A program made the translations under genes and the position numbers. This document shows, piece by piece, positions 38,083 through 62,729 of a stretch of 64,000 bases of DNA. Under the pieces are notes generated by a model. That model ran no database searches and was not told where the DNA came from. It was given only the letters and a program-made list of their open reading frames with translations. Each line of letters starts with the position of its first letter. Within the stretch, counting starts at the first letter, position 1. This stretch comes from Eledone cirrhosa (taxonomy: Eukaryota). The stretch spans positions 16,058,001 to 16,122,000 of the forward strand of contig OZ024747.1 of the NCBI GenBank assembly GCA_964016885.1, read 5' to 3'.

Positions 38083-38910
38083 ACACCACTACACCCAACA
38101 CTAGCCCCACACCACTACACCCAACACTAGCCCAACACCACTACACCCAACACTAGCCCCACACCATTACACCCAACACTAGTCCCACACCACTACACCC
38201 AACACTAGCCCCACACCACTACACCCAACACTAGCCCCACACCACTACACCCAACACTAGCCCCACACCACTACACCCAACACTAGCCACACACCATTCC
38301 ACCCAACACTAGCCCCACACCATTACACCCAACACTAGCCCCACACCACTACACCCAACACTAGCCCCACACCACTACACCCAACACCACTACACCCAAC
38401 ACTAGCCCCACACCACTACACCCAACACTAGCCCAACACCACTACACCCAACACCACTACACCCAACACTAGCCCCACACCATTACACCCAACACTAGCC
38501 CCACACCACTACACCCAACACTAGCCCCACACCACTACACCCAACACTATCCCCACACCATTACACCCAACACTAGCCCCACACCACTACACCCAACACT
38601 AGCCCCACACCACTACACCCAACACTAGCCCCACACCATTACACCCAACACTAGCCCCACACCACTACACCCAACACTAGCCCCACACCACTACACCCAA
38701 CGCTAGCCCAACACCACTACACCCAACACTAGCCCAACACCACTACACCCAACACTAGCCCCACCACCAACACCACTACACCCAACACTAGCCCCCACCG
38801 GCAACAACACTACACCCTACACTAGCCCCACCACCAACACCACAACACCCAACACTAGCCCCACTACCAACAACACTACACCCAACACTAGCCCCACCAC
38901 CAACACCACT
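38083..38910. repeat. 26-bp minisatellite (acaccactacacccaacactagcccc), ~30 units, with 15-bp and 32-bp variants
   Basis: Tandem units read directly. Confidence 0.95.
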
Positions 38911-39233
38911 ACCACAACCACTACCACCAACAGCATCATTATCACTACCACCACCATACCACTATCACCACCACGACCACCACCCCCATCATCATCACCA
39001 CCAACACCACTACCACTACCACCAACACCATCATTATCACTACCACCACCAACACCATCATTATCACTACCACCCTCACCACCGCCACGACCACTACCAC
39101 GACCTCTATGACCACCACCACCACCCTGACCACCACCACCATCACCATCATGATCACTACCAACAAAATCATCATAATCGTGGTAGAGAAAATCATACTT
39201 AGCAACAACAACACCAGCACCATCATTATTACA

Positions 39234-39381
39234 TGATTTGAACTCACGGCCCTTTACGGTCTGTGTTCAAATCCTGATGAGGTTAACTTTGACTTTCATC
39301 TTTACGGAGTCAACAAAATAAAGTACCAGTAATGCACTGGGTTAATTGCTGGCCTTGTTCCAAAAGGAGAAACAATTATTA
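39234..39381 (+). mobile_element. 5'-truncated SINE with a short 5' inversion
   Basis: gatttgaactca (inverted B box) precedes cggccctttacggtctgtgttcaaatc, the core and the tail. Confidence 0.8.
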
Positions 39382-39726
39382 CTACCAACATTATGCCTAA
39401 CTAATAACACCGACACCACCACCACCCCTATCATCACCACGAACATCACCATCACCACCACCAACAACAACATCATCATCACTATCAAGATCCTCCTCAA
39501 CATCATCATCATCATCATCATAATCGTGGTAGAGAAAATCACTCTCAGCAACAATAACAACAACACTAGCGTCAACATTATCTTCTTCATAATATTCGTA
39601 GACTACATCATCTCTATTATGATCAGCTTCAGCGTTGTTATCATTCACGTGATCTCTAATATCGTTGTAGTGATCACATTTGTTATTAACATCTCGCTAT
39701 CATCATTATCAACATCCTCCTCATCA

Positions 39727-42700
39727 CCCATCAATGCCACAAACACCATCACCTCCATCATCAACCCCACAAACACTATCAACACCTCCATCATCAACAC
39801 CACAAACACTAACACCACCATCATCAACCCCACAGACACTAACACCTCCATCATCAACCCCACAAACACTAACACCTCCATCATCAACCCCACAAACACT
39901 AACACCTCCATCATCAACCCCACAAACACTATAACCCCCATCATCAACCCCACAAACACTATCACCTCCATCATCAACACCACAAACACTAACACCACCA
40001 TCATCAACACCACAAACACTAACACCTCCATCATCAACGCCACAAACATCATCACCTCCATCATCAACCCCACAAACACTATCAACACCATCATCAACAC
40101 CACGAACACTAACACCACCATCATCAACCCCACAGACACTAACACCTCCATCATCAACACCACAAACACTAACACCTCCATCATCAACGCCACAAACATC
40201 ATCACCTCCATCATCAACCCCACAAACACTATCAACACCATCATCAACACCACAAACACTAACACCACCATCATCAACCCCACAGACACTAACACCACCA
40301 TCATCAACCCCACAAACACTAACACCTCCATCATCAACCCCACAAACACTAACACCTCCATCATCAACCCCACAAACCCTAACACCCCCATCATCAACCC
40401 CACAAACACTATCACCTCCATCATCAACACCACAAACACTAACACCACCATCATCAACCCCACAAACACTATCACCTCCATCATCAACACCACAAACACT
40501 ATCACCTCCATCATCAACCCCACATACACTATCACCTCCATCATCAACACCACAAACACTATCACCTCCATCATCAACACCACAAACACTATCACCTCCA
40601 TCATCAACACCACAAACACTATCACCTCCATCATCAACACCACAAACACTATCACCTCCATCATCAACACCACAAACACTAACACCTCCATCATCAACCC
40701 CACAAACACTAACACCCCCATCATCAACCCCACAAACACTATCACCTCTATCATCAACACCACAAACACTAACACCTCCATCATCAACACCACAAACACT
40801 AACACCTCCATCATCAACACCACAAACACTAACACCTCTATCATCAACACCACAAACACTAACACCTCCATCATCAACACCACAAACACTAACACCTCCA
40901 TCATCAACCCCACAAACACTAACACCCCCATCATCAACCCCACAAACACTAACACCCCCATCATCAACCCCACAAACACTATCACCTCCATCATCAACAC
41001 CACAAACACTAACACCTCCATCATCAACACCACAAACACTATCACCTCCATCATCAACCCCACAAACACTAACACCCCCATCATCAACCCCACAAACACT
41101 ATCACCACCATCATCAACACCACAAACACTAACACCTCCATCATCAACGCCACAAACATCATCACCTCCATCATCAACACCACAAACACTATCAACACCA
41201 TCATCAACACCACAAACACTAACACCACCATCATCAACCCCACAGACACTAACACCTCCATCATCAACCCCACAAACACTAACACCTCCATCATCAACCC
41301 CACAAACACTAACACGCCCATCATCAACCCCACAAACACTATCACCTCCATCATGAACACCACAAACACTAACACCACCATCATCAACCCCACAAACACG
41401 AAAACCTCCATCATCAACCCCACAAACACTATCACCTCCATCATCAACACCACAAACACTAACACCACCATCATCAACCCCACAAACACGAAAACCTCCA
41501 TCATCAACACCACAAACACTAACACCTCCATCATCAACACCACAAACACTAACACCTCCATCATCAACACCACAAACACTAACACATCCATCAACAACCC
41601 CACAAACACTATCACCTCCATCATCAACACCACAAACACTAACACCACCATCATCAACCCCACAAACACGAAAACCTCCATCATCAACACCACAAACACT
41701 ATCACCTCCATCATCAACACCACAAACACTATCACCTCCATCATCAACCCCACAAACACTAACACCCCCATCATCAACCCCACAAACACCATCAACACCA
41801 TCATCAACCCCACAAACACGAAAACCTCCATCATCAACCCCACAGACACTAACACCTCCATCATCAACCCCACAAACACTATCAACACCATCATCAACCC
41901 CACAAACACGAAAACCTCCATCATCAACCCCACAGACACTAACACCCCCATAATCAACCCCACAAACACTATCACCTCCATCATCAACACCACAAACACT
42001 AACACCACCATCATCAACCCCACAAACACGAAAACCTCCATCATCATCACCACAAACACTATAACCTCCATCATCAACACCACAAACACTGTCACCTCCA
42101 TCATCAACACCACAAACACTATCACCTCCATCATCAACACCACAAACACTATCACCTCCATCATCAACACCACAAACACTGTCACCTCCATCATCAACAC
42201 CACAAACACTATCACCTCCATCATCAACACCACAAACACTATCACCTCCATCATCAACACCACAAACACTAACACCACCAAAATCAACCCCACAAGCACT
42301 ATCACCACCTCATCAACGCCACAAACACTAACACCTCCATCATCAACACCACAAACACTATCACCTCCATCATCAACACCACAAACATTATCACCTCCAT
42401 CATCAACACCACAAACACTATCACCTCCATCATCAAGACCACAAACACTAACACCTCCATCATCAACCCCACAAACACTATCACCTCCATCATCAACACC
42501 ACAAACACTAACACCACCATCATCAACCCCACAAACACGAAAACCTCCATCATCAACACCACAAACACTAACACCTCCATCATCAACACCACAAACACTA
42601 ACACCTCCATCATCAACACCACAATCACTATCACCTCCATCATCAACCCCACAAACACTATCACCTCCATCATCAACACCACAAACACTATCACCTCCAT

Positions 42701-45700
42701 CATCAACACCACAAACACTATCACCTCCATCATCAACACCACAAACACTATCACCTCCATCATCAACACCACAAACACTATCACCTCCATCATCAACACC
42801 ACAAACACTAACACCTCCATCATCAACCCCACAAACACTAACACCCCCATCATCAACCCCACAAACACTATCACCTCTATCATCAACACCACAAACACTA
42901 ACACCTCCATCATCAACACCACAAACACTAACATCTCCATCATCAACACCACAAACACTAACACCTCTATCATCAACACCACAAACACTAACACCTCCAT
43001 CATCAACACCACAAACACTAACACCTCCATCATCAACCCCACAAACACTAACACCCCCATCATCAACCCCACAAACACTATCACCTCCATCATCAACACC
43101 ACAAACACTAACACCTCCATCATCAACACCACAAACACTAACACCTCCATCATCAACCCCACAAACACTAACACCCCCATCATCAACCCCACAAACACTA
43201 TCACCTCCATCATCAATCCCACAAACACTAACACCCCCATCATCAACCCCACAAACACTATCACCACCATCATCAACACCACAAACACTAACACCTCCAT
43301 CATCAACGCCACAAACATCATCACCTCCATCATCAACACCACAAACACTATCAACACCATCATCAACACCACAAACACTAACACCACCATCATCAACCCC
43401 ACAGACACTAACACCTCCATCATCAACCCCACAAACACTAACACCTCCATCATCAACCCCACAAACACTAACACGCCCATCATCAACCCCACAAACACTA
43501 TCACCTCCATCATGAACACCACAAACACTAACACCACCATCATCAACCCCACAAACACGAAAACCTCCATCATCAACCCCACAAACACTATCACCTCCAT
43601 CATCAACACTACAAACACTAACACCACCATCATCAACCCCACAAACACGAAAACCTCCATCATCAACACCACAAACACTAACACCTCCATCATCAACACC
43701 ACAAACACTAACACCTCCATCATCAACACCACAAACACTAACACATCCATCAACAACCCCACAAACACTATCACCTCCATCATCAACACCACAAACACTA
43801 ACACCACCATCATCAACCCCACAAACACTATCACCTCCATCATCAACACCACAAACACTATCACCTCCATCATCAACACCACAAACACTATCACCTCCAT
43901 CATCAACCCCACAAACACTAACACCCCCATCATCAACCCCACAAATACTATCAACACCATCATCAACCCCACAAACACGAAAACCTCCATCATCAACCCC
44001 ACAGACACTAACACCTCCATCATCAACCCCACAAACACTATCAACACCATCATCAACCCCACAAACACGAAAACCTCCATCATCAACCCCACAGACACTA
44101 ACACCCCCATAATCAACCCCACAAACACTATCACCTCCATCATCAACACCACAAACACTAACACCACCATCATCAACCCCACAAACACGAAAACCTCCAT
44201 CATCAACACCACAAACACTATAACCTCCATCATCAACACCACAAACACTGTCACCTCCATCATCAACACCACAAACACTATCACCTCCATCATCAACACC
44301 ACAAACACTATCACCTCCATCATCAACACCACAAACACTGTCACCTCCATCATCAACACCACAAACACTATCACCTCCATCATCAACACCACAAACACTA
44401 TCACCTCCATCATCAACACCACAAACACTAACACCACCATCATCAACCCCACAAGCACTATCACCACCTCATCAACGCCACAAACACTAACACCTCCATC
44501 ATCAACACCACAAACACTATCAACTCCATCATCAACACCACAAACACTATCACCTCCATCATCAACACCACAAACACTATCACCTCCATCATCAAGACCA
44601 CAAACACTAACACCTCCATCATCAAGACCACAAACACTAACACCTCCATCATCAACACCACAAACTCTAACACCTCCATCATCAACACCACAAACACTAT
44701 CACCTCCATCATCAACACCACAAACACTATCACCTCCATCATCAACACCACAAACACTATCACCTCCATCATCAAGACCACAAACACTAACACCTCCATC
44801 ATCAACACCACAAACACTATCACCACCTCATCAACGCCACAAACACTAACACCTCCATCATCAACACAACAAACACTATCACCTCCATCATCAACACCAC
44901 AAACACTATCACCTCCATCATCAACACCACAAACACTAACACCTCCATCATCAAGACCACAAACACTAACACCTCCATCATCAAGACCACAAACACTAAC
45001 ACCTCCATCATCAACACCACAAACACTATCACCTCCATCATCAACCCACAAACACTATCACCTCCATCATCAACCCCACAAACACTATCACCTCCATCAT
45101 CAACACCACAAACACTAACACCTCCATCATCAAGACCACAAACACTAACACCTCCATCATCAAGACCACAAACACTAACACCTCCATCATCAACACCACA
45201 AACACTATCACCTCCATCATCAACCCACAAACACTATCACCTCCATCATCAACCCCACAAACACTATCACCTCCATCATCAACACCACAAACACTATCAC
45301 CTCCATCATCAACACCACAAACACTATCACCGCCATCATCAACACCACAAACACTAACACCTCCATCATCAACACCACAAACACTAACACCTCCATCATC
45401 AACACCACAAACACTAACACCTCCATCATCAACACCACAAACACTAACACCTCCATCATCAACACCACAAACACTATAACCTCCATCATCAACACCACAA
45501 ACACTATCACCTCCATCATCAACACCACAAACACTAACACCTGCATCATCAACACCACAAACACTATCACCTCCATCAACAACCCCACAAGCACTATCAC
45601 CTCCATCATCAACCCCACAAACACTATCACCACCATCATCAACACCACAAACACTATCACCTCCATCATCAACACCACAAACACTATCACCTCCATCATC

Positions 45701-46675
45701 AACCCCACAAACACTATCACCTCCATCATCAACACCACAAACACTATCACCTCCATCATCAACACCACAAACACTAACACCTCCATCATCAACACCACAA
45801 ACACTATCACCTCCATCAACAACCCCACAAACACTATCACCTCCATCATCAACCCCACAAACACTATCACCACCATCATCAACACCACAAACACTATCAC
45901 CTCCATCATCAACACCACAAACACTATCACCTCCATCATCAACCCCACAAACACTATCACCTCCATCATCAACACCACAAACACTATCACCTCCATCATC
46001 AACACCACAAACACTATCACCTCCATCATCAACACCACAAACACTATCAACACCATCATCAACACCACAAACACTAACACCTCCATCATCAACCCCACAA
46101 ACACTAACACCTCCATCATCAACACCACAAACACTAACACCTCCATCATCAACGCCACAAACACAATCACCTCCATCATCAACACCACAAACACTATCAA
46201 CACCATCATCAACACCACAAACACTAACACCTCCATCATCAACACCACAAACACTAACACCTCCATCATCAACACCACAAACACTAACACCTCCATCATC
46301 AACACCACAAACACTAACACCTCCATCATCAACACCACAAACACTAACACCTCCATCATCAACACCACAAACACTAACACCTCCATCATCAACACCACAA
46401 ACACTATCACCTCCATCATCAACACCACAAACACTAACACCTCCATCATCAACACCACAAACACTAACACCTCCATCATCAACACCACAAACACTATCAC
46501 CTCCATCATCAACACCACAAACACTAACACCTCCATCATCAACACCACAAACACTAACACCTCCATCATCAACACCACAAACACTATCACCTCCATCATC
46601 AACACCACAAACACTATGACCTCCATCATCAACACCACACACACTATCACCACCTCATCAACACCACAAACACCA
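39727..46675. repeat. 30-bp minisatellite (atcacctccatcatcaacaccacaaacact), ~230 units
   Basis: Tandem units read directly; single-base deletions shift phase at ~42309, 44468, 44827, 45047, 45226. Confidence 0.97.
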
Positions 46676-60899: not shown

Positions 60900-61067
60900 A
60901 GAATTAGTATATCTACCAACATATATATACAGATGTATACCTATGCTAGCAAATATATAGGTTTTGTCTTAGTAACTGTGTGGTTCAATGCAAGGGGATG
61001 CAGAACAATTATATGAAAGACGTAAAATAAGAAAATTATAAAAATGTACTTACTTACTAAAATTTCA

Positions 61068-61151
61068 CTCCAACTAATTAGTTTCTGAAAAGGAATAAAC
61101 ATGGTTTCCGATTGGAACAACATGGAGAAATATCCTTTCGTCATCAGGGAG
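61068..61151 (-). ncRNA. Type I hammerhead ribozyme (left arm)
   Basis: Minus: ctcc-CTGATGA-c gaaagg..cttttc a-GAAA-ctaattag-TT-ggag; perfectly palindromic stem III. Confidence 0.7.
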
Positions 61152-61335
61152 ATCTGTTCTCAGATAAGTTCCCAGGCAAAGCGTGGACACAGGGAACTTA
61201 TACACAAATAATTCAGTGGATGGAAAAAAGCAAGCGAGGACTAGATTCCAGGACAATGAAAAAATCACTGACTACTTAGTCGGTGGCGAATTCCTTGTGT
61301 CCACGCTTTGCCTGGGAACTTAGCTGAGAACAGAT

Positions 61336-61419
61336 CTCCCTGATGACGAAAGGATATTTCTCCATGTTGTTCCAATCGGAAACCATGTTTATTCCCTTTC
61401 AGAAACTATTTAGTTGGAG
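61336..61419 (+). ncRNA. Type I hammerhead ribozyme (right arm)
   Basis: ctcc-CTGATGA-c gaaagg..cctttc a-GAAA-ctatttag-TT-ggag. Confidence 0.7.
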
Positions 61420-61468
61420 TGAAATTTTAGTAAGTAAGTAAATTTTTATAATTTTCTTATTTTACGTC

Positions 61469-61544
<76 letters not shown>

Positions 61545-61557
61545 CAGGTGTGTCAGT

Positions 61558-61637
61558 TTGGCAGGTGAACAGTGAGCTGTACTGATGAAGGGTGATACCC
61601 AGAAACAGTAGTGTCTGCAGTTCTGTTCACATGCCAA
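61558..61637 (+). ncRNA. Type I hammerhead ribozyme with extended, bulged stem I
   Basis: ttggca.g.gtgaacag.tg.agctgta-CTGATGA-a gggt[gat]accc a-GAAA-ca[gtag]tg-TC-tgcagtt.ctgttcac.a.tgccaa; GUC triplet ends at 61615. Confidence 0.88.
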
Positions 61638-61749
61638 CACAAGAGAAAGAATGATGTGTTCTTTCTACTGACATGGCTAAAAGATTGAGGCTTGTTTGCA
61701 TAATTGCAAAGGAATCGAATGTTATTATTAATATTCGAAAAACTCAGAT

Positions 61750-61839
<90 letters not shown>

Positions 61840-61902
61840 GTTAAAACTGGATGAGACAATTTAGACATTATTTAATAGAGCCCCATATTGGCCATATTAC
61901 TA

Positions 61903-62023
61903 TTTCTGAGTTCAAATCACGCCGAGGTTGACTTTGCCTTTCATCCTTACAGGGTCGATAAAACAAAGTACCAGTAATGCACTGGGTAATTGCTAGCCTT
62001 GTGCCTAAAATAGAAACAATTAT
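61903..62023 (+). mobile_element. 5'-truncated SINE
   Basis: B box, core and tail; TSD attatttaatagag. Confidence 0.88.
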
Positions 62024-62139
62024 TTAATAGAGTACTCGATGCTTTGTATAGTAGAGTATGGGTATATTATATGATTGTGGAACTAGCTGTTGAAACAACG
62101 GCATAAGCTCCGACACTGAGCCCTGATTCTTTAAAAAAA

Positions 62140-62666: not shown

Positions 62667-62729
62667 GTCACTTACTTCTTTTCGGCATGAGAAGGGAGAG
62701 CAACTGACAGTCTGGCTCATCAGAGTCAC
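62667..62729 (-). ncRNA. Degenerate hammerhead-like motif
   Basis: Minus: gtgact-CTGATGA-gcca..tgcc-GAAA-agaag-TA-agtgac; one mismatch each in stems I and II. Confidence 0.4.

Follow-up and report, generated by a model that had tools for sequence, protein, structure and literature searches.

The genome of Eledone cirrhosa contains a short insert with a hammerhead-like motif between two (TA)n tracts, and the question raised by this locus is whether the insert is an active ribozyme and a retrozyme-like monomer, as a preliminary description of the sequence had proposed. The window, i.e., the whole stretch of DNA analysed, comprises 64,000 nucleotides (GenBank assembly GCA_964016885.1, contig OZ024747.1, positions 16,058,001 to 16,122,000 of the forward strand). 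Unit positions equal window positions minus 61550. The insert and its surroundings comprise the following features:

61473..61539, no strand: (TA)n tract, left side of the target
61540..61550, no strand: 11-nt filler at the 5' junction, not family sequence
61551..61758, + strand: 5'-truncated, single-armed copy of the unit (unit 1-208; genome search, flank comparison)
61558..61581, + strand: 5' strand of stem I, UG bulge at 61573-61574 (sequence, fold, descriptor)
61582..61588, + strand: catalytic core CUGAUGA (core motif, descriptor)
61589..61601, + strand: stem-loop II (GGGU/ACCC, loop GAU) on an A.A mismatch at 10.1/11.1
61602..61615, + strand: GAAA; stem III of 3 bp, capped by a GUAG tetraloop (UUAG in the family); GUC, with the cut predicted to follow 61615
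61616..61637, + strand: 3' strand of stem I; the predicted 5'-OH product begins here, and 5' ends of family copies accumulate
61644..61666, + strand: hairpin; family register at unit 98-105/109-116, AGAAAGAA/TTCTTTCT register private to the window copy
61687..61752, + strand: candidate RT-binding region made up of two predicted hairpins that directly precede the first 3'-end site
61753..61836, no strand: short 3'-end site (unit ~203-208, putative RT start) running into the right (TA)n tract

The motif and the window copy

Read from the window sequence, the motif consists of a CTGATGA core (61582-61588), stem II (GGGT/ACCC, 61590-61593/61597-61600, loop GAT), GAAA (61602-61605), stem III (ACA/TGT, 61605-61607/61612-61614, loop GTAG) and a GTC at 61613-61615, which places the predicted cut at 61615|61616. 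Stem I comprises 21 bp (7 bp, a TG bulge at 61573-61574, 8 bp, one mismatch, 6 bp). The window copy therefore has the CUGANGA...GAAA...UH core of a type I hammerhead, and helices I, II and III are present with helix I open, which is the type I layout; a UG bulge lies 7 bp from the core and loop II ends in A. A structural hammerhead descriptor has its single match in the window here and none in 100 shuffled windows, and the 213-nt insert folds with z = -5.8, a value reached by 0 of 200 shuffles. An Rfam search of the window gave no hammerhead match at the gathering score or at E<=10, only microsatellite-driven noise. Positions 10.1/11.1 (61589/61601) are an unpaired A.A. Canonical type I hammerheads have an R-Y pair at 10.1/11.1, and the core is for that reason not fully canonical. 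Most of what the preliminary description had read from the letters was recovered at the same positions (the intact core, the GUC triplet, the ~21-bp stem I with its UG bulge, and a highly structured insert between (TA)n tracts at 61473-61539 and 61753-61836); its "near-canonical full hammerhead" holds for the presence of a descriptor-specific motif but has to be qualified by the A.A mismatch.

The element itself occupies 61551 to ~61758, corresponding to positions 1-208 of a 438-bp unit, and is 94% identical to a natural full unit, 5'-truncated and single-armed; the 11 nt at 61540-61550 are filler outside the family sequence. Nine rare letters set the window copy apart from its family. A private letter at 61553 produces the perfect tgtcagt/actgaca pair, those at 61646 and 61662 produce the AGAAAGAA/TTCTTTCT register, and a private T>G at 61608 produces the GUAG loop III. 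Both the hairpin (AGAAAGAA at 61644, TTCTTTCT at 61659) and the 7-bp closing pair (TGTCAGT at 61551, ACTGACA at 61667) that had been described are thus present, but their distinctive letters are rare in the family. The hairpin string of the window copy occurs once in the genome and the GUAG loop III in 11 of 2,312 copies, so that this copy has left no visible offspring. The suggestion of a retrozyme-like monomer fits the family, with its tandem 438-bp unit and thousands of copies, but not this copy, which amounts to under half a unit with a single ribozyme: it is an ordinary decayed, one-armed, sub-monomeric fragment. As a separate observation, the changes at 61646 and 61662 jointly make a new perfect 8-bp hairpin register, possibly through a quasi-palindrome template-switch mutation.

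The insert has several repetitive neighbours. Window positions 61010-61477 hold an inverted repeat of 187 bp (97%) that is flanked by TA tracts and has a hammerhead-like CTGATGA...GAAA core in both arms (61340, + strand; 61147, - strand); it looks like a two-armed fragment of another family of the Penelope-like element (PLE) type, and related sequence occurs in 5 of 359 loci. On the other side, 61837-62030 is a partial copy of a ~190-bp repeat that is very common (137 of 359 loci). This repeat frequently lies within the retrozyme, at unit 174-191, where an AT-rich target seems to have been duplicated. A CTGATGA...GAAA motif at 62723 (- strand), with a possible 6-bp stem I, is probably a degenerate hammerhead of a further family. 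Farther away, 38083-46673 holds two arrays, one with a 26-bp and one with a 30-bp repeat (231 copies, ~7 kb). Their C-over-G skew is extreme and both strands have long open frames; they are either a minisatellite or a mucin-like coding repeat.

A 438-bp repeat family and its ends

A search of the 3.0-Gb genome with the window copy returned 1,504 candidates, of which 40 were scored, the best among these being 95-96% identical, and a search with the other half of the unit returned 1,682 candidates. Comparison of flanks revealed head-to-tail repetition with a period of 438 in locus L021 and 439 in L029. Exact matches to the core plus stem II number at least 2,600 in the genome and those to a 3' 23-mer at least 3,801, with 0 matches to the reversed control in each case. 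As to the tandem multimers for which the preliminary description had proposed to look, two ribozymes stand in tandem in L021 and L029; the core is intact in 125 of 173 copies examined. Over 383 arms, the median length is 180 nt and the maximum 966 nt; 50 arms exceed one unit and two exceed two units. At least two subfamilies of the unit are present, and loop II varies across the family (GAU, AAU, AAUC); an apparent second family sharing only the 3' hairpins was rejected as a subfamily of the same 438-bp unit.

The unit has a GC content of 0.41, a fold z of -7.1 and, if circular, a predicted 66-67% of its bases paired, and contains no tRNA-derived part. No sense frame is open over unit 1-207 in any copy (202 of 202), sense ATG frames of 46-47 aa occur only in L029, and no RT plus GIY-YIG frame was found among the frames examined in the unit. 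On the opposite strand, a frame of ~70-75 codons spans the hammerhead half (L029:2213-2440 (-), window 61554-61757 (-)); it is stop-free in at least 64 of 202 copies, has no Pfam match and is probably incidental. These properties fall within those of retrozymes (150-450 bp tandem unit, GC <50%, full type I hammerhead), and judged by sequence the unit defines a new non-LTR retrozyme family with a putative circular RNA, of which the window insert represents a truncated copy.

Loci were sampled by exact 3' motifs, with no selection on 5' ends, which yielded 249 distinct loci (discovery set, 163 of 170 fetched; replication set, 86 of 90). The 3' ends of 407 arms fall largely at two sites ~36 nt apart (357 arms), comprising 191 short ends (unit 199-214) and 166 long ends (unit 226-248), with 50 elsewhere and modes at 208, 213 and 244; they thus lie 143 or 179 nt past the unit's own predicted cut site. 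In the discovery set, a TA/CA repeat begins within 3 nt of the end in 165 of 231 short or long ends, and in 83 of 163 loci there is a second arm, inverted and attached to the first at the 5' ends. Among 133 arm pairs in the 249 loci, 103 could be classified, and 96 of these combine a short with a long arm (5 have two long and 2 two short arms) where about half would be mixed if the arms were independent; the replication set alone gives 33 mixed pairs of 38. Arms of one locus agree at polymorphic sites in 0.83 of cases, versus 0.52 (maximum 0.66) in 500 shuffles, and share 27 rare letters versus 6, indicating that both arms derive from one RNA or one source lineage. The family accordingly displays the anatomy of PLE insertions (5' truncation, partial tandems, an inverted 5'-truncated arm, a tail at one end and a microsatellite target). 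Loose ends that run into (TA)n, at unit 208, 213 and ~230, are also seen in reads of three sequencing runs, although these runs come from one sample, of a kind not on record and possibly the source of the assembly, and are not independent support.

Predicted folds and 5' ends at the predicted cut site

In the predicted minimum-energy fold of the window copy, the core pairs with letters of stem III and no hammerhead forms, the predicted probability of stem III being 0.02. In the family, CUGAUG can pair with CAUUAG of stem-loop III in a fold predicted to lie 6.5 kcal/mol below the active one. The T>G at 61608 narrows this predicted gap from 6.5 to 2.5 kcal/mol, so that monomeric cleavage could be more efficient in the window copy than in the family. 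Nine of the 256 possible tetraloops block as strongly, and UUAG is one of two that also self-pair for a double hammerhead; the window copy has neither a strong block (gap 2.5) nor the self-pairing loop. When a dimer was considered as a remedy for the self-blocking, the double hammerhead was about equal in ViennaRNA energy to two blocked monomers (-70.8 vs -71.6 kcal/mol) but was beaten by the blocked dimer (-79.4 kcal/mol). The A.A at 10.1/11.1 is present in 162 of 173 copies, and a loop I-loop II contact is putative, with the UG bulge present and loop II variable. For comparison, the axolotl HHR_Amex2, with U.U at the same mismatch, reached 22% cleavage in 1 h as a monomer (PMC7229834). Because the energies ignore tertiary contacts, they suggest rather than show a slow ribozyme; the modelling suggests that the family hammerhead is slow and dependent on a dimer or a protein. 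The fast monomeric hammerhead of the preliminary description is not supported, given the A.A in 162 of 173 copies, the predicted self-blocking fold and the read-through of 194 of 204 arms.

Helix conservation was assessed in 46 of 204 eligible copies (the window copy and 45 others). Paired cells make up 94.9%, compared with 94.1 +/- 0.2 in shuffles (0 of 500 as high) and 33-42% with slid partners, while pairs changed on both sides number 2 versus 1.9 in shuffles; since the copies are related, the support is moderate. The common stem I polymorphisms all retain pairing; all changes in stem I are one-sided (G.U), as are almost all changes in the hammerhead helices. Subfamily differences that keep their helices are G.U/A-U at 26:71, U.G/C-G at 30:67, G-C/G.U at 17:78, U-A/U.G at 16:79 and G.U/A-U at 171:182, and the single true compensatory change is A-U/G-C at 105:109 (226 vs 100 copies).

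The 5' ends of the copies bear on cleavage in vivo. After 27 of 343 arms with inversion junctions that could not be placed had been dropped, 204 arms were at risk at the cut site. Eight of them start at precisely the base that follows GUC, unit 66 (window 61616), versus 1.0 expected (p 1e-5), and the cut site had been predicted before the ends were counted. One of the eight (L125) looks like an internal deletion, and L345 and L346 are near-duplicates. By set, unit 66 starts number 6 of 133 in discovery and 2 of 71 in replication (p 0.047), where the top position is 68. More broadly, 27 ends fall in unit 66-71 and 4 in 60-65; the replication set gives 11 versus 1, or 10 versus 1 without the near-duplicate (p 0.005-0.008). 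Stops per nt amount to 0.0094 over unit 89-67 and 0.0029 over 65-1, and the 3' strand of the larger hairpin shows no excess (0.0034 per nt). Control positions with T after C or G predict 0.66 ends where 6 were seen, leaving the spike unexplained by sequence context. Of the arms that reach the cut site, 194 of 204 cross it, which implies that most templates were uncut or re-ligated.

This step is most simply read as run-off at the end of RNA that had been cut at GUC|, a few bases having been lost on joining. Stalling within stem I could account for the broad excess, but less readily for the sharpness of the edge. It is likely that part of the family RNA is cut at the predicted site, and the step lends indirect backing to the cleavage that the preliminary description had placed after 61615. 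Other accumulations of 5' ends were set aside: a pile at unit 80 was produced artificially by two private letters of the reference and disappeared with a profile, piles at unit 71-74 were largely ambiguous inversion junctions, and a pile at unit 319 sits in internal repeats and palindromes. Arms that stop after one complete turn of the unit would point to circular templates; ends at unit 232-257 occur in 10 of 21 tailed arms and 6 of 26 short arms, which a fixed pause fits equally well.

Relatives, proposed mobilisation and meaning

Metazoan non-LTR retrozymes (Cervera and de la Pena 2020, PMC7229834; review PMC7761336) share with this family a full type I hammerhead in a non-coding, low-GC tandem unit that is highly paired, present in thousands of copies and accompanied by PLEs in the genome, and HHR_Amex2 likewise has a mismatch at the base of helix II (PMC7229834). 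At 438 nt, the unit is longer than the reported retrozyme RNAs of 170-400 nt, yet within the 150-450 bp range of the repeats. The family differs in its dispersed partial tandems of at most ~2.2 units, as opposed to long arrays, which reach 62-mers in corals; in its (TA)n ends, inverted arms and tail, which are undescribed in the portion of PMC7229834 covered; and in its predicted self-blocked core, an exception in the same portion. Schistosoma Sm-alpha and newt satellite 2 (PMC6155905, PMC4209133) resemble the family in a bulged stem I near loop II and in a short helix III with a self-complementary loop (UUAG with G.U here), from which a double hammerhead can be drawn; unlike them, this family has A.A at 10.1/11.1 and no Rfam hammerhead match.

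The ends of the family, on the other hand, are those of PLEs. Features listed for PLE insertions are truncated 5' ends, partial tandem arrangement, a second copy in inverse orientation, a tail of 30-40 bp at one of the ends and insertion into microsatellites (PMC8557442), and in vitro a PLE protein acts on both strands of AT-rich DNA, which it cleaves and extends, starting at two internal RNA sites that define the tail, with a protein-assisted hammerhead (PMC11167929). For PAc of Anolis, uncut RNA is the main substrate and hammerhead mutants still insert, and the study found no RNA reads that start or end at the hammerhead site (PMC11167929). With PAc and with Neptune/Naiad (PMC8557442), the family has in common the 5' truncation, the partial tandems, the inverted 5'-truncated arm, the 30-40 bp one-end tail, the AT-rich or microsatellite target and two internal start sites downstream of the hammerhead; unlike these elements, the unit lacks an RT-endonuclease frame and has a full rather than a minimal hammerhead. 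Chlamydomonas, which has non-autonomous PLEs with head-to-tail copies, provides a further parallel in MRC1 (PMC8557442), which like the unit is non-coding and arranged head to tail and is assigned to PLE machinery. MRC1-type PLEs generally resemble an autonomous family at the 3' end, whereas for the unit no such resemblance was found in the 40 PLE loci sampled. On these comparisons, the unit and its ribozyme appear to be those of a non-LTR retrozyme, the mode of insertion appears to be that of a PLE, and the unit is not an autonomous PLE.

Candidate machinery is abundant in the same genome. A search for GIY-YIG sequences gave 10,596 candidates, and all 150 scored were above the cut-off. Pfam analysis of six genomic frames identified RT plus GIY-YIG in three, RT alone in one and GIY-YIG alone in two shorter ones; the frames carry a CX2-5CxxC linker like that of Neptune/Nematis (motif as given in PMC8557442). 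In one RT plus GIY-YIG family, two of six copies terminate ~125 nt and four of six ~172 nt past its own minimal hammerhead, mostly in TA repeats, and one two-armed copy (L096) has one end of each kind; ORF-bearing Neptune-like PLEs of this genome thus terminate in the same manner as the unit. Neither blastn (word 7) nor nhmmer found an autonomous element resembling the unit among 40 PLE loci drawn from these candidates; apparent partner matches in L071/L094 and L089 were merely nested neighbours, and that in L093 was a remote non-coding relative. This element (L093:1230-1700 (-)) is a ~470-nt partial-tandem element with a hammerhead-like core, located between TA tracts and with a fold z of -6.7; it is remotely related to the unit (nhmmer E 0.0013) and is likely a sister retrozyme family. 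A Neptune-like PLE family was also observed (L081, L082, L086, L088, L089 and L093; 938-aa frame in L081), the terminal hammerhead of which reads as the U3-A8 core variant mentioned in PMC4209133; five of its six copies end at a long site and one at a short site, all into (TA)n.

We consider it quite probable that the family is a 438-nt non-LTR retrozyme, likely pasted into (TA)n by a PLE RT-endonuclease and likely from slowly self-cut RNA. Read-through transcripts of partial tandems would be cut at GUC| by the slow, self-blocked hammerhead, which may need a partner copy or a protein, and a host ligase would probably close the monomer between two cuts into a circle. TA-rich DNA would be nicked on both strands by a PLE protein (probably a dimer), and reverse transcription would begin at internal positions of the RNA, unit ~208 for one strand and ~244 for the other. 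About a tenth of the cDNAs would run off a cleaved 5' end while the rest would read across an uncut or re-ligated junction, and two cDNAs would then join head to head via microhomology; the window copy would represent a one-armed dead end. The broader proposition, that an animal retrozyme has been caught using Penelope machinery and that its copies record in vivo cleavage, circle-sealed templates, a two-site priming rule and an off-switch formed for the circle by pairing of the core with stem III, is held more tentatively, as plausible rather than probable.

An explanation that departs from the foregoing only in the circle step is that the family is a non-autonomous PLE derivative (an orphan pseudo-LTR plus tail) moving as linear read-through RNA, with occasional hammerhead cuts and no circle needed. 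It would account for every insertion feature, each being a PLE feature, and for arrays that seldom exceed one unit, and it has precedents in the insertion of uncut and hammerhead-mutant PAc RNA (PMC11167929) and in the head-to-tail elements of Chlamydomonas (PMC8557442). We nevertheless find it fairly unlikely in view of the full type I motif, in which stem I is long and bulged whereas the ORF-bearing PLEs of this genome have minimal motifs, of a unit that closes on itself with a circular fold predicted to be 66-67% paired, and of 40 loci in which no parent PLE was found. Retrozyme RNA cut in vivo, the preferred reading, would also be called into question if the hammerhead were a dead relic and the 5'-end excess came from RT stalling in stem I or from microhomology in the TA flanks. 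This is improbable: the edge is sharp at the predicted bond, yet the predicted blocked helix runs to unit 56-62, the T-after-C/G controls leave 6 ends against 0.66 expected, the larger hairpin's 3' strand has no excess, and the core is intact in 125 of 173 copies with common variants that leave stem I paired. These points are weighed against an excess spread over unit 66-89, exactly the 3' strand of stem I, and the in silico dominance of blocked folds. Still further from the evidence, and very improbable indeed, is the proposal that the window copy acts on its own as a fast ribozyme in monomeric form and serves as a retrozyme monomer or source copy. With 208 of 438 nt and one ribozyme, a unique hairpin string, a loop III variant found in 11 of 2,312 copies, no visible offspring, A.A at 10.1/11.1 and a predicted stem III probability of 0.02, it has little of what such a copy would display, even though its core is intact, its UG bulge lies 7 bp from the core, its loop II ends in A and the T>G at 61608 weakens the blocking helix (2.5 vs 6.5 kcal/mol).

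Retrozyme papers have proposed PLEs as mobilisers on the basis of co-occurrence, tandem arrangement and a common ribozyme type (PMC7229834, PMC7761336), and the repeats lack a motif pointing to a partner according to the part of PMC7761336 covered. In the literature covered, which leaves out most subscription papers and Repbase/Dfam, nothing was found on this family or on PLE-type retrozyme ends, and within the same limited scope no genomic test of the proposed PLE-retrozyme link was found. The family now supplies counts: hundreds of copies have ends of the PLE type, and 5' ends form a step at the predicted cut site. Models of PLE integration have to accommodate the pairing of one short with one long arm (96 of 103), and the small size of the unit suits it to the published in vitro PLE assay. 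If the broader proposition is true, it would name the missing mobiliser of non-LTR retrozymes and provide a natural cargo RNA of 438 nt for PLE integration.
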